Assembly (NCBI GenBank): GCA_000002435.2
Contig: CM018792.1
DNA length: 64,000 bases
From: Giardia intestinalis
Lineage: Eukaryota
Strand: one strand, 5' to 3'
Of the stretch, positions 42,001 through 48,000 are shown piece after piece. Each line of letters begins with the position of its first letter. The first letter of the stretch is position 1. The position numbers are program-made.

Positions 42001-45000
42001 GCGGCGTATGTGGGCAGGGTAGCGTATTCATGGAAGGGGCAGCTGCCCCACCGACGACCACTCCCGCCCTGTGCTTGCCACAATGGGAGGGCACGTGCGC
42101 CCGTAGACCGGCAGATGCCGTGCTGGTCCTCTCGAGCAATATGCGCATCCCTGCGTGACGTCCAGCGTGGACCAGATACCACGACCTGGGCCATCGCTAC
42201 TGGCAAGGCAAGTGCTGGTTGCAGCAGGGACGCCCGCCGCCCTCCAAGATAGACCAGCGACCTGCGCACCAGCTGCTATGGGCCTAACCTGCCGGGAACC
42301 TGGATCACAGCGCACTTGTCAAGGCCGCACACTCATTTGCATACTCGCCGCTAGCGTTGGACAACTGCGAGGTGTCCGTCTCCGGCCGCGCTCGCCTTAG
42401 TGTTTGGTCCATGGTGATACGCCTCAGCCGAGGAGGCTATCCGTACGCGGCAGTTCCCGGAGAGAAGGCAGGGGTGGCCGGCGGGCCTGGGAGATAGGAT
42501 TAGCACTAGCGAGTCCAGCCATCGGCCCGGGTTGCACAAAGGACGCCTGTAGTGCCTCCCCGGCTTCTGAGCATGGAAGGGCTGTGGGGTCTGCAGATGA
42601 GACGGACGCTGCCTTTTGATTTTATGTGTTTGTAGCAGCATAGTATTTATCGGGGTCTGCTCTGTCTGAAACCGAGAACATTCGCTTTCTTTCCTTATAC
42701 AGGCTGGGATCGATTGTAGAGGTGTGCTGTGCAAACCGGTGGCGGTCAGCGTATCTACTATCCAAACAGATACTGCCTGCGTCCTCCTGTGGCAGACCAC
42801 CACCAGGACCCAATCTACACAGCTGCTCTGGCATCTGTCGGACAATCATCACCTCCAGCCGAAGGATTGCTGTACGTCACATATCTTGAGTCGTCCATCG
42901 ACCAGGTGGTGCCATAAGCTCTTGTCCCCTACGTGTCCACCCGATGCTTACTCTGAGCGCCGCCAGTTGCACTCACGTCTGCACTACTCATCTGGATGCC
43001 CCCACTCTTCAAGAGCACATGCCCGCAACCGATGCTCCGTATTACGAGAGGAGCCAGCCGGATCACTGCGCCGTGCATAGCTCTCATAGGCGTGTTGCTA
43101 TGCGCGTCCCAGCCGTTCCACCCGTAAGCTGTCACGCGTTCACATGTGCGCCAGTGCCACCGAGCTTTCGTGGTCTCGAGGGGCCCCTGATGCATGGAGC
43201 GCTTGCGCAAAGTCCTTCCACCACTGACCCAAGCCTACCCCTCGCAAGATCCTTAGCGGAGTTGCATCCGAGATGTGTGCCTGCGTTGCTGTCCAGGTGC
43301 ATGTGCCGGCCCTGGTGCTTCCCACAAGCTTGCGAGCATCGAGCTGGCCTCTACCGAACCGTATCAGAAGTCAACACCAGGATGTAGTCCCCTCGGTTGG
43401 GCTCTGCAGGCTTCCAGAGCTACGCATCAAAAGGCCGTTCTTCTTTGCGTCGTGTAACGTAGGAAAATGCATCGAGCTACTACGCCCTCTCTGTGTGGCG
43501 TGGTTTACAACGGGGGACGAGATCCCTGTGCTCATGTCTATCTGCCCAGGACCAGCCGCAGCCCGGGTTGAGGATGACAAGCGAGCATCACCTGGCTCCT
43601 TGTCAGCAGGTGGGAGATCCAGCCACCCTAGTGCCCACAGCAAAGGGTGCCGATCACTGGCAGAAGGACAAGACACCCAGGCCCCGTTCCTTCCACTGAT
43701 GGTATCTAATAAGAGACTCCTTTGTCGCCTGCACCAACAACCTCAGGCACTGTGGGTCAGAGCGCCTCCATAGTGGACAGCGGTAGCACTATGATGATCT
43801 GGGGTGATGGGAGGGCTGGCTGCCTTCTGAACCCCACCTGGCACCTTGTTATGCGATGGGGAACCTTAGTAGCATTTAGTACGCGAGATCAGAGCTATGC
43901 ACACACCAGGCGAGAGCGTCTCATGGGCTTGCCTCCGTTGGTCCACACTTCCACGGATCCGGTATCTCCTCCAAAAACTGCGAGGATCCGCTTTTGGGTG
44001 CTATCTGCCGGGTAGCCGGGCCAGTAGGTGTCGTCTGAGGGAGGACGCCACAGGGACAGAGAGAACACCGGCGCACAGGGGTTTGCAAGGGGTCGACCCG
44101 CGCAGGGAAGGCACAAGGCCCAGCTCTCCGAGGATGTAGAGACACCGGAAGAGGGGCTAGCTAGAGGCTGCAGGCACGCGGGTGGTCCCGTGCCTATTCA
44201 TGGACTTTCTGTTTCCCTGCGTGGTGGGCTGAGTATCACAGGCTACACGTAGTGGATGCGTTTACTACCTAAGTATCTATGCTTTTCCTCTACAGAGGAA
44301 CCACCAGCAGAGGAAGCCCACAAGACCCCCGACTACAACGATGACAGCCACAGAGATGCCCGCTATGGCGCCTGTGCTGAGGCCGCTCTTGTTGACGCTT
44401 CCGCCGGTACTGTCGCCATCTTTCATGAGATAGCAGAGGACGGAACCTTTATTGTTGGGCGGAGGGGCGCAGTTTAAGCAGTCCTTGACACCGGTAATAT
44501 CACCGTTGCTGTTTTCGCAAGATGTGCAGGCGCCTTCTAATGCGGTCTTGTAGTATCCTGTGGCACACGTCGTGCAGGTGTTTGCAGTATTGGCGGCTGA
44601 GCATGTCTTGCAAGTAGGATCGCACGAGGGACAGGTTCCAGCACCGTCCGGACCAAGACTATTGGTGCATGTCTGGCATTTTCCTTTGTTATCAGTTAGT
44701 GCACATACCTGCTTGCCAGGCTGTCTCGTTGTTTCATAGCACCCGCCCTCCTGGATGAAGTATCCGGCGGCGCAGACCGTGCAAGCACCGTTAGCGGCAG
44801 TGGTGCAGAACCGAGTCCTGGCCGCATTGCTTGTGCAGACGCCATTGAGCGGCACGTTGCTCCCCTTGCACTTCGAGCAGTACTTGGTACCTCCAATTGT
44901 TAGGCCGCACGTCTCGCACTCCGGGCCCTCCACGCATTGCTCCACGCACTGGCCGCCCTCATTAAGCTTGGTCTCGTCGGCGTACCTCAGCATCTTCCCG

Positions 45001-48000
45001 GCGGGGCAGGCCGTGCACTTGGAAGCGCCGGCCCCGCTGCACTCCGCACAGGAGGGGTCGCAGGGCGCGCACGTTTGCCCGGATAGATACGTTCCGGCCG
45101 GACAAGACCCCAAGCAAGCGTTCTTCTCTGGAGTGAGGAAGTAGTTACTTTGGCACTTTGTGCACTTCTGCTTGTCCTCCGAGCACACCTCGCAGTTGGG
45201 GAGATTGCAGCCAGCAGGCGCGACCTCGTCGCACGTGTTCCGGCCCTCGTTCTTCTGGGTCCCGTCGGGGCACTCGGCGTAGCAGCCGCCCTTGTAGAGG
45301 TAGTGCGCGTTCGTACAGGCCGTGCACGTCCCTGCCTTATCGTTTGTACCGACCGTGCACATGCCCGCGTCCGTCTTCGCCTTGCACTCCCCATTCACCG
45401 GGACCTTGTCCCCTGTGCACTTGGAGCAGAAGGTCTGGCCCCCGATTTCCACGTTGCAGCTGTCGGCGGCGCAGTTTGTCGCGCCGGGGTTTGCGGCGGC
45501 GCACGGCGTTGGGCCAGCAGGCGCGACCTCGTCGCACGTGTTCCGGCCCTCGTTCTTCTGGGTCCCGTCGGGGCACTCGGCGTAGCAGCCGCCCTTGTAG
45601 AGGTAGTGCGCGTTCGTACAGGCCGTGCACGTCCCTGCCTTATCGTTTGTACCGACCGTGCACATGCCCGCGTCCGTCTTCGCCTTGCACTCCCCATTCA
45701 CCGGGACCTTGTCCCCTGTGCACTTGGAGCAGAAGGTCTGGCCCCCGATTTCCACGTTGCAGCTGTCGGCGGCGCAGTTTGTCGCGCCGGGGTTTGCGGC
45801 GGCGCACGGCGTTGGGCCAGCAGGCGCGACCTCGTCGCACGTGTTCCGGCCCTCGTTCTTCTGGGTCCCGTCGGGGCACTCGGCGTAGCAGCCGCCCTTG
45901 TAGAGGTAGTGCGCGTTCGTACAGGCCGTGCACGTCCCTGCCTTATCGTTTGTACCGACCGTGCACATGCCCGCGTCCGTCTTCGCCTTGCACTCCCCAT
46001 TCACCGGGACCTTGTCCCCTGTGCACTTGGAGCAGAAGGTCTGGCCCCCGATTTCCACGTTGCAGCTGTCGGCGGCGCAGTTTGTCGCGCCGGGGTTTGC
46101 GGCGGCGCACGGCGTTGGGCCAGCAGGCGCGACCTCGTCGCACGTGTTCCGGCCCTCGTTCTTCTGGGTCCCGTCGGGGCACTCGGCGTAGCAGCCGCCC
46201 TTGTAGAGGTAGTGCGCGTTCGTACAGGCCGTGCACGTCCCTGCCTTATCGTTTGTACCGACCGTGCACATGCCCGCGTCCGTCTTCGCCTTGCACTCCC
46301 CATTCACCGGGACCTTGTCCCCTGTGCACTTGGAGCAGAAGGTCTGGCCCCCGATTTCCACGTTGCAGCTGTCGGCGGCGCAGTTTGTCGCGCCGGGGTT
46401 TGCGGCGGCGCACGGCGTTGGGCCAGCAGGCGCGACCTCGTCGCACGTGTTCCGGCCCTCGTTCTTCTGGGTCCCGTCGGGGCACTCGGCGTAGCAGCCG
46501 CCCTTGTAGAGGTAGTGCGCGTTCGTACAGGCCGTGCACGTCCCTGCCTTATCGTTTGTACCGACCGTGCACATGCCCGCGTCCGTCTTCGCCTTGCACT
46601 CCCCATTCACCGGGACCTTGTCCCCTGTGCACTTGGAGCAGAAGGTCTGGCCCCCGATTTCCACGTTGCAGCTGTCGGCGGCGCAGTTTGTCGCGCCGGG
46701 GTTTGCGGCGGCGCACGGCGTTGGGTTTGTCTTTGCTTTACTTGCTGTTTGCGACGCCAAGGCCATTTGCAGGGCCAAGCTTACAAAAATAAGCTTATCG
46801 AACATTGGGCCAGCGCTCGGGCAATAGCCATTTAGAAAGCAAGTTTCTTGAGAATTACGCCATGAAATGATGAAGATGGTATGATATTTGTTGTCGATAC
46901 CAGGAGTGTGGCTTTCATCGACAAAGGGTGCCTAGATCAGTGTTCAGGAGAATAATAGAATCACATGCTGTCATCTACAGTATTTGGTGCAGAGAGGAAA
47001 GTGGAGGAGCTCAGATGAGAGTAAGTATGCAGCTAGAGGTACGCTATTATCAGTGACTGTTTGTTATGAAAGGAATAAGCAGGCCACGGTGGAGGCCGCC
47101 GCCATGGGCCTGACGATCAGGAGCGACAACTGCAAGTCCACCATGGCGGGCGAGGAGGTGACCTTTCTCAACCACCCGGCGTCCCCCACTCCAGCAAGCC
47201 TTGCCCCAAAGGCCATCGCAGGTGCTGAGACTGCCCCCATAACCATCCACCAGAAGCTCATCCTGATGTCACTCTGTGTGGTCCCGATGGTGAACCACGC
47301 CCCCCTGGTCGAGATAGCATCGGACAAGGCGGACTACGAGGAGCTCGACAGACATCGCACAAGGCTTCAGCACTAACCAGCAGAAGCTGCGATCGCCTGG
47401 TCGACTTCCTGGCGTACCCGAAGGAGAAGGGCGGCCCGGGCCTGCTCATGCCGGGGCTCTACCACGACGAGCTGCGGAGGGCATGGGCCTCCCTGGACGT
47501 CAACAAGGGGACCAGAGACCCGGTGGAGCTGCCGGTGGACGGCCAGGCACTGCAGGGGAAGGGGACCTACTTCAACCGCCTCCTCACGCGCACACACCAG
47601 CTTCCGGACAGAGCGGCGGCGTACTGTCTGCAGATGTGCGGCGTGCTGACCGAGGAGGAAAGGGCCCTGAAGCAGAGAGATGGCTCGATCATGGCGCAGA
47701 CAAGAGGCACCTGCCCGGGCTGCCACACGGCAGACCCTCGACCGCGACATGAACTGCCCGAAAGCGGCGTGGACCAGGACCACGAGGCACGACATGATCG
47801 TCACGTGCCTGTACCTCCGCGTCTCGGGGAAGTTCAACGCAGACCTGGAGGTCAAGACCCACAGCCACCTCAGCGACCAGAACCAGAAGCCCGACATCTG
47901 GCTCGTCGACAAGTGCAAGGCGATAGATGTGGGCGTCATCCAGCCCCGCCAGATGGATGCCTACTACAACGAGAAGGTCAAGAAGTACAGGGACGAGACA

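Follow-up and report, generated by a model that had tools for sequence, protein, structure and literature searches.

The vsp16 surface protein gene of Giardia intestinalis: five identical 303-nt units and a possibly chimeric head

How did a surface protein gene of Giardia intestinalis come to carry five indistinguishable copies of a 303-nt segment, and what is the source of that segment? The locus that raises this question lies in a stretch of 64,000 nucleotides (the window) on contig CM018792.1 of GenBank assembly GCA_000002435.2, and the gene is vsp16, which encodes a variant-specific surface protein (VSP). The explanation that we consider highly probable as a whole is that vsp16 is a known repeat VSP gene, that its head and backbone form a chimera joined at a short junction (J), and that the head module was duplicated and then expanded or homogenised by exchange or slippage. 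The gene and its array are placed as follows.

44277-46805, minus strand: vsp16 / GL50803_112867 coding sequence, 842 amino acids plus stop (ORF list, Pfam, exact protein match, row 16 of Adam et al. 2010).
45210-46725, minus strand: tandem array of 5.003 x 303 nt with identical copies (Tandem Repeats Finder, lag-303 comparison, unit anatomy).
46423-46725, 46120-46422, 45817-46119, 45514-45816 and 45211-45513, minus strand: the five units, each of 101 amino acids with 12 Cys, two CXXC and one GGCY.

With Tandem Repeats Finder, one array is detected in vsp16, with a period of 303 nt, 5.0 copies, 100% matches, 0% indels and a score of 3032. When the sequence is compared with itself at a lag of 303 nt, an unbroken run of 1,213 matches defines a 1,516-nt tract, and its five units do not differ at any position. 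The initial annotation had described five identical or near-identical head-to-tail units and proposed a self-comparison as a check; the units proved to be identical, not divergent. The periodicity ends abruptly at both edges of the array, with an overlap of 1 nt, and chance is no issue for 1.5 kb of perfect periodicity. Each unit runs from PTPC, ten residues past the predicted cleavage site of the signal peptide, to APAG. As the unit corresponds to 101 codons (303 = 3 x 101), the array is in frame, encoding residues 28-532, and any change in copy number keeps the frame. The unit is also GC-rich, as had been noted (66.7% vs. 48.3% for the window), and the GC content at third codon positions (GC3) of the array in the coding frame is 87%. 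GC-biased conversion as an amplification-specific cause of this GC3 was rejected, because the corresponding unit in DH (sub-assemblage A2) has 85%.

Is the gene a VSP, and is it new? The 842 residues of the product agree exactly with those of KAE8303799.1 / XP_001709724.2, an annotated VSP of Giardia intestinalis WB clone C6, and the Pfam VSP profile (PF03302) reaches 458 bits (E = 3e-137), where the cutoff is 31.4. The features that bear on its class are these.

46755-46805, minus strand: signal-peptide-like leader MFDKLIFVSLALQMALA, residues 1-17, with a cleavage-type site A-L-A|S, followed by SQ (read from the translation).
44280-44372, minus strand: transmembrane stretch (residues 812-837) and cytoplasmic CRGKA (residues 838-842) (translation, AlphaFold2 helix, end of the Pfam VSP profile).
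46801-46807, minus strand: initiator-like element CAATGTT over the ATG, read in the sequence GGCCCAATGTTCGAT and equal to the Inr type given for vsp16 by Adam et al. 2010.
44261-44266, minus strand: AGTAAA, a Giardia-type polyadenylation signal 11 nt past the stop (3' sequence AGTAAAC).

The leader, judged by eye from the translation, is hydrophobic with a typical n-h-c layout, and it is also found on annotated VSPs. The consensus of the Giardia polyadenylation signal is AGTRAAY, and vsp16 has both an initiator at its ATG and such a signal just past its stop. VSPs are defined by a C-terminal transmembrane domain followed by the invariant pentapeptide CRGKA (Adam et al. 2010; Xu et al.). In vsp16 this tail is preceded by a helix that AlphaFold2 places at model residues 390-408, equivalent to residues 821-839. 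The Cys content of 11.9%, with 24 CXXC, lies within the VSP range of about 11-13%, in which Cys occurs mostly as CXXC with few CXC. The GGCY motif occurs six times, at residues 102, 203, 304, 405 and 506 in the units and at 687, and a survey (bioRxiv 2022.03.07.483299) lists one WB VSP with six GGCY motifs. Judged from its sequence, vsp16 is thus a bona fide VSP with a predicted type I membrane topology, as its leader, CXXC and GGCY motifs, hydrophobic C-terminal stretch and CRGKA tail had suggested at the outset.

The recommended comparison with known repeat-containing VSPs leads to the gene itself, which Adam et al. 2010 (BMC Genomics 11:424, Additional file 1, row 16) list as vsp16 = GL50803_112867, clade II, chromosome 4, HT_TR303, with the Inr CAATGTT, 741 amino acids, 88 Cys and 22 CXXC. 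The catalogued protein (XP_001709724) and that of the window agree in everything apart from copy number, including the chromosome 4 context, the Inr, the 303-nt repeat and the partner vsp17. Gene and phenomenon are both already known, and the feature in the window is a correct re-discovery of a catalogued repeat. A full-text search for the gene ID 112867 and the supplements of the Be-2 and Pollo 2020 papers gave nothing relevant. According to Adam et al. 2010, 30 vsp genes bear repeats, with units of 105-516 bp in 2 to >20 copies, and the bioRxiv survey finds tandem repeats in 36 of 136 WB VSPs; vsp16, with an in-frame ectodomain repeat whose unit falls within 105-516 bp, belongs to this subclass.

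How many units does the gene hold? The records of the same isolate, WB, differ. XP_001709724.1, from the 2007 assembly, has four units in 741 residues and is 100% identical to vsp16 of the window save for exactly one unit fewer, while XP_001709724.2, from the long-read assembly, has five in 842. As each unit contributes 12 Cys and two CXXC, the catalogued 88 Cys and 22 CXXC fit four units exactly, and the counts for the 842-residue protein agree with those of this four-unit form. Three repeats are listed in the vsp16 row of Additional file 1, yet the sequence of the 741-residue protein and its Cys and CXXC counts all correspond to four. The 1.5-kb array is beyond the span of Sanger reads, and the PacBio assembly of Xu et al., whose draft was corrected with Illumina reads, resolved duplications of up to about 20 kb; therefore, a collapse in the 2007 assembly is the simplest explanation for four versus five. 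The difference may also reflect true allelic or clonal variation in tetraploid Giardia, and the copy number may be unstable (four or five) within a single clone. The earlier suggestion that copy number may vary finds partial support in the two assemblies, which do not separate collapse from true variation.

Could assembly or polishing have made or distorted the homogeneous five-copy array, so that the true count or the identity of the units differs? We consider this improbable. Three counts do exist for one isolate (three in the 2010 table, four in the 2007 protein, five in the 2020 protein), Adam et al. 2010 themselves call copy numbers approximate owing to assembly condensation, and Illumina correction of a PacBio draft can homogenise repeats. 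Moreover, short-read contigs break near the locus: the Logan contigs of WB-like isolates all end 345-770 nt short of the VSP side (at about 41490-41922 of the window), and the window contains no dispersed repeats that would explain these breaks besides the VSP 3' end that vsp genes have in common. On the other hand, 1.5 kb is far below the duplications that the PacBio assembly resolved, and the older Sanger assembly independently shows identical units at the protein level. The agreement of Sanger and PacBio assemblies means that the tandem repeat itself is secure and that the question of an artefact concerns only the exact number, four or five. Since the reference has changed from four to five units, masses for proteomics, primers and orthologue tables that rely on the 741-residue model are outdated, and VSP repeat arrays are places where genome assemblies mis-count.

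Where does the unit come from? A two-unit query retrieved mini-VSPs of about 197 residues, one from WB (P0099) and three from the assemblage E isolate P15 (P0100, P0101 and P0104), which have a leader and a module of the vsp16 type; P0099 and P0100 carry the same leader as vsp16. By sequence comparison, the 303-nt unit is the complete ectodomain module of these mini-VSPs. The unit is 89% identical to P0099, 71% to P0100 and 42-47% to the heads of the long VSPs of P15. The first 80 residues of P0099 show no difference to vsp16 (0/80), whereas the following 31 show six (6/31; Fisher p = 3e-4). The mini-VSPs resemble vsp16 in the predicted signal peptide, the module (64-89% identity) and the APAG-C[ND].PNC junction, but they have a single module and a 27-residue tail before the stalk and the transmembrane segment, where vsp16 has five modules and a long backbone. 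The parts of the locus that this comparison involves are listed here.

45192-45209, minus strand: junction J, TGCAATCTCCCCAACTGC (CNLPNC, residues 533-538), directly after the last unit (switch of partner class, motif scan).
44373-45191, minus strand: non-repeated long ectodomain backbone (blastp, identity to P15 long VSPs, colinearity with the syntenic P15 gene).
46806-47096, minus strand: vsp16 5' flank, with homology to the corresponding flank of the P15 mini-VSP P0100 (blastn).
49390-49896, minus strand: vsp17 (GL50803_28626-like, 168 amino acids), head-to-tail upstream of vsp16 (CRGKA scan, tblastn, Pfam VSP E = 2e-19).

J is a conserved 18-nt joint, TGCAAYMTYCCYAACTGC, that encodes C[ND].PNC. 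The motif occurs once in 11 of the 64 retrieved proteins that end in CRGKA, all of them members of the vsp16 subfamily. When nine related proteins are split at this motif, they fall into two classes of heads and two classes of tails, and all four combinations are present.

Head H1 (MFDK/PTPC): vsp16, P0099, P0100 and the syntenic DH gene, the latter three 89%, 71% and 76% identical to vsp16.
Head H2 (MLYL/PKSC): vsp17, P0002, P0003, P0004 and P0105, 61-88% identical among themselves.
H1 versus H2 heads: 37-56% identity (42-50% for vsp16).
Long backbone tail: vsp16, P0003, P0002 and P0004, the latter three 83%, 82% and 75% identical to vsp16.
Mini tail: vsp17, P0099 and P0100, the latter two 95% and 81% identical to vsp17.

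At the DNA level, too, the partner class changes exactly at the 18-nt joint. Upstream of the array, a blastn alignment between L014:5707-6374, the P0100 locus, and window positions 47096-46423 reaches 77.6% over 679 nt, 294 nt of which lie upstream of the P0100 ATG. The neighbour vsp17, row 17 in the table of Adam et al. 2010 (168 aa, HT), carries an MLYL/PKSC head, the type found on the long P15 VSP at the syntenic site, and J connects this head with a tail of the mini-VSP class. This head is the positional orthologue of the head of that long P15 VSP; it is about 20 residues shorter than other H2 heads, two Cys included.

The same two genes correspond to one gene in assemblage E. Between the same neighbours P15 has a single, unsplit VSP. 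The end of the P15 upstream gene, the spacer and the head are colinear with the 5' flank and head of vsp17 (window 50639-49717, sensitive comparison), and the P15 junction, backbone and stop are colinear with the last unit and backbone of vsp16 (window 45494-44245); the P15 region upstream of the 1414-residue neighbour gene aligns with window 41558-40901. At this site P15 lacks any counterpart to the WB segment of about 49558-45495, which comprises the mini tail, the spacer, the mini-type 5' flank, the leader and the first four units. Taken together, the class of its head, the class of its backbone, the match of its 5' flank, the colinearity with P15 and the switch at J make vsp16 look like a chimera. 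The most economical reading of these alignments would be recombination at J, by which a segment from mini-VSP tail to head either was inserted into the resident long gene of the A lineage or disappeared by deletion in E.

vsp17 and vsp16 could also have arisen from a single VSP that was duplicated in tandem and then diverged, with no swap at a specific junction. This reading has the familiar head-to-tail arrangement in its favour: according to Adam et al. 2010, linear arrays account for 164 of the 303 vsp genes. The 3' ends of the two genes, conserved at 83% over 145 nt, fit this as well. We nevertheless judge it unlikely, because the heads and tails of vsp16 and vsp17 sort into two classes that are recombined crosswise, the 5' flank of vsp16 matches a mini-VSP locus, and a single P15 gene is colinear with the head of vsp17 and the backbone of vsp16; two more independent conversions would be required for the observed pattern.

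For the chimeric origin, the following course of events can be proposed. A head of the mini-VSP lineage, with about 290 nt of 5' flank, the signal peptide and the module, would have recombined onto a resident long VSP at the 18-nt J (C[ND].PNC), and the resident head would have been left upstream as vsp17, provided with a mini-VSP tail. One illegitimate duplication with an overlap of 1 nt would then have created a 303-nt in-frame direct repeat of the whole module. Identical units could then have undergone unequal exchange between sister chromatids or alleles, or slippage during replication, which would have raised their number to four or five and kept them homogeneous. We infer that in-frame amplification of the module by unequal recombination is the most likely mechanism. 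In its full form, namely that a segment from mini-VSP tail to promoter, signal peptide and head was swapped into a resident long VSP at a fixed 18-nt joint (or lost in E by the reverse deletion), making two antigen genes from one before the head was amplified five-fold, we give this scenario an even chance of being correct.

The chimeric history of head and tail and the J joint would add a modest new detail to what is known of the gene. The head and tail exchange at J would be a concrete example of new VSP antigens made by recombination, and it refines an accepted idea without overturning anything. If it is general, this VSP subfamily would diversify by an exon-shuffling-like exchange of heads and tails at one joint, besides point divergence and whole-gene duplication.

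When was the array made? Under a star tree, zero differences in 1,515 nt limit the divergence of each copy to about 0.2% (upper 95% bound), whereas the units of WB and DH differ by about 12%. The last expansion or homogenisation was therefore very recent relative to the A1/A2 split. This bears out the proposal of a recent expansion or concerted evolution, with no difference in 5 x 303 nt against about 88% identity to the syntenic unit of DH. The orthologue in P15 and a paralogue in DH have head duplications of two copies only, whose periods (246 and 249 nt) and boundaries differ from those in WB; this makes the amplification lineage-specific and indicates that duplications of the module arise independently.

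An older array, already present in the ancestor of A1 and A2 or before and kept identical by continuous concerted evolution or gene conversion, is possible in our estimate, if clearly the less favoured timing. The DH contig ends inside a homologous unit, which would fit an unresolvable array in DH too; the high GC3 of the unit in both WB (0.87) and DH (0.85) is compatible with long-term GC-biased conversion, and the mosaic identity between P0099 and vsp16 indicates that conversion acts on the module. Against it stand the independent duplications in P15 and DH, and neither a second unit nor a unit-unit junction was recovered from any other isolate. An old array and a recent amplification are compatible with each other, and timing is all that sets them apart.

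Some points weigh against our reconstruction, in which a chimeric head was amplified recently. P0099, the closest donor in WB, was compared as a protein and not as locus DNA. The five copies and their perfect identity rest on the deposited assembly and not on reads, and polishing with short reads may have removed rare differences from some of the copies. At the syntenic locus, the DH contig begins within a unit. The event at J could have had either polarity: a segment may have been inserted in the A lineage, or deleted between two J sites in the E lineage. Finally, the full-text search by gene ID found no expression or antibody data for vsp16.

The syntenic loci of the other isolates, located through the conserved neighbour of 1414 residues, add to this picture. 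The DH gene has an H1 unit that is about 88% identical to that of WB at the nucleotide level, but a different central backbone, and by this alignment the locus is a mosaic between sub-assemblages. The central backbone is only about 50% identical to that of WB vsp16, though the flanks are 92% identical. The DH contig (AHGT01000035.1, L005:1-1386) breaks off within the unit of this VSP, and its first 20 nt or so seem to contain a frameshift of 1 nt. In GS_B (assemblage B, L010:1395-6111), the VSP ORFs at this site are unrelated; two overlapping long ones (756 and 833 residues) lie directly upstream of the conserved neighbour of 1410 residues. They look like one or two genes broken by frameshifts, with the C-terminus of a VSP lost from the second ORF. 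As assemblage B also has VSP ORFs at this position, the site is ancestral. Two of the long P15 VSPs, P0002 (L001:8001-8099) and P0003 (L003:6164-6262), are annotated with a 33-residue extension (MCAMWLAAS...) ahead of the MLYL signal peptide, and their start codons have probably been mis-called.

What kind of structure does the module form? The five modules occupy the membrane-distal end of the protein. Behind them, the backbone comprises about 280 Cys-rich, non-repeated residues and includes one diverged copy of the GGCY module at window 44703-44915, which a blastp search with the unit detects at 35% identity. AlphaFold2, applied to unit 5 together with the rest of the protein, gives a model with a mean pLDDT of 82.6 that consists almost wholly of short β-hairpins, and its confidence dips at residues 98-100, the exact end of the unit. 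A Foldseek search against the PDB finds furin-like Cys-rich repeats (R-spondin Fu1-Fu2, ErbB/IGF1R) with E-values down to 3e-4, TM-scores (normalised to the target) of up to 0.71 and sequence identities of 20-30%; nearly all of the top 30 matches are R-spondin Fu1-Fu2, with probabilities of about 1.0, and superpose with the furin-like fold. There is also a weak match to Pfam Furin-like_2, and no solved VSP structure is among the PDB matches. The module is thus predicted to form a disulfide-stapled β-hairpin rod of the furin-like or R-spondin type with a flexible APAG linker at its end. In the R-spondin Fu1-Fu2 and ErbB/IGF1R Cys-rich repeats, the likeness to the vsp16 module lies in this predicted disulfide-linked rod; in contrast, nothing points to a function or to receptor binding in common, and the likeness, which is structural only, describes the modelled fold and not membership by descent.

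A HMMER search with the unit yields 111 representative proteins at E <= 1e-3, with none below 1e-30 among these representative (clustered) proteins, which means that this type of module is common in Cys-rich proteins of Giardia and that the particular unit lacks a close copy at that clustering level. The Pfam family PF09132 (BmKX, a scorpion toxin family) covers the VSP module end to end with 60-65 bits, at residues 38-67 of each unit and 65-94 of P0099. A toxin-like domain was rejected, because over these 30 residues the solved toxin 1rji reaches no better than E ~ 0.1; the BmKX profile seems to capture Giardia VSP modules and is an annotation trap.

How does vsp16 compare with other repeat VSPs? 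In vspA6 / CRP170 (vsp67) a 195-bp repeat occurs about 22-23 times, and vspA6-S1 has about one copy. Like that of vsp16, the vspA6 array begins shortly past the signal peptide (99 bp, compared to 80 bp in vsp16) and is followed by non-repeated sequence and a conserved 3' end. The unit of vsp16 is longer (303 vs. 195 nt), present in fewer copies and unrelated in sequence. The copy number of vspA6 differs among related genes and alleles, with allelic variation reported for both vspA6 and vspC5, and the VspA6 repeat is immunodominant (Adam et al. 2010). As in vsp16, the in-frame repeats of vspC5 (vsp90, 105 bp, about 25 copies) and vsp122 (516 bp, three copies) form the exposed ectodomain, and their unit lengths bracket 303 bp. 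The vspC5 array, however, reaches the conserved 3' region, whereas that of vsp16 precedes a non-repeated backbone of 310 residues. VSP repeat arrays are immunodominant and alter the size and the epitope valency of the parasite coat; by analogy with VspA6 and other repeat VSPs, the vsp16 array would multiply one epitope and lengthen the exposed part of the coat protein.

Does the array encode anything on the opposite strand? The initial annotation had mentioned long spurious ORFs in the other five frames, which overstates the case; two such ORFs exist, both on the plus strand.

45150-46835, plus strand: antisense ORF of 561 amino acids, a by-product of the repeat (ORF list).
45158-46792, plus strand: antisense ORF of 544 amino acids, likewise a by-product (ORF list).

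These are the only two of the five frames that run long and stop-free through the array besides the coding frame. The third plus frame is interrupted by three stops in each unit; in either of the other minus frames a single stop per unit limits the ORFs to about 87-100 residues. We read the 561- and 544-residue ORFs best as spurious and not as genes, and it is extremely unlikely that they are real overlapping genes or functional antisense products. They are long and stop-free through 1.5 kb, and antisense transcription has been discussed for VSP genes of Giardia. However, a GC3-rich (87%) unit that lacks antisense stops gives rise to long plus-strand ORFs when it is repeated five times, and they exist only through this repetition. 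Their products are low-complexity Arg/Ala/Pro repeats, their exact sequences are absent from a collection of 15 billion proteins, and the homology support lies entirely in the minus frame.

The spacers on both sides of vsp16 (41153-44276 and 47097-49389) are gene-poor and GC-rich (55-67%) and contain many ORFs of 80-290 residues in all frames, none of which has a Pfam match. The downstream spacer is 92% conserved in DH and mostly absent from P15. Elsewhere in the window, an ORF of 3,877 residues without a Pfam match (15447-27080, minus strand) contains a second tandem repeat at 17103-17681, in which a 42-nt unit occurs in 13.8 copies with 97% matches and encodes a 14-residue repeat.

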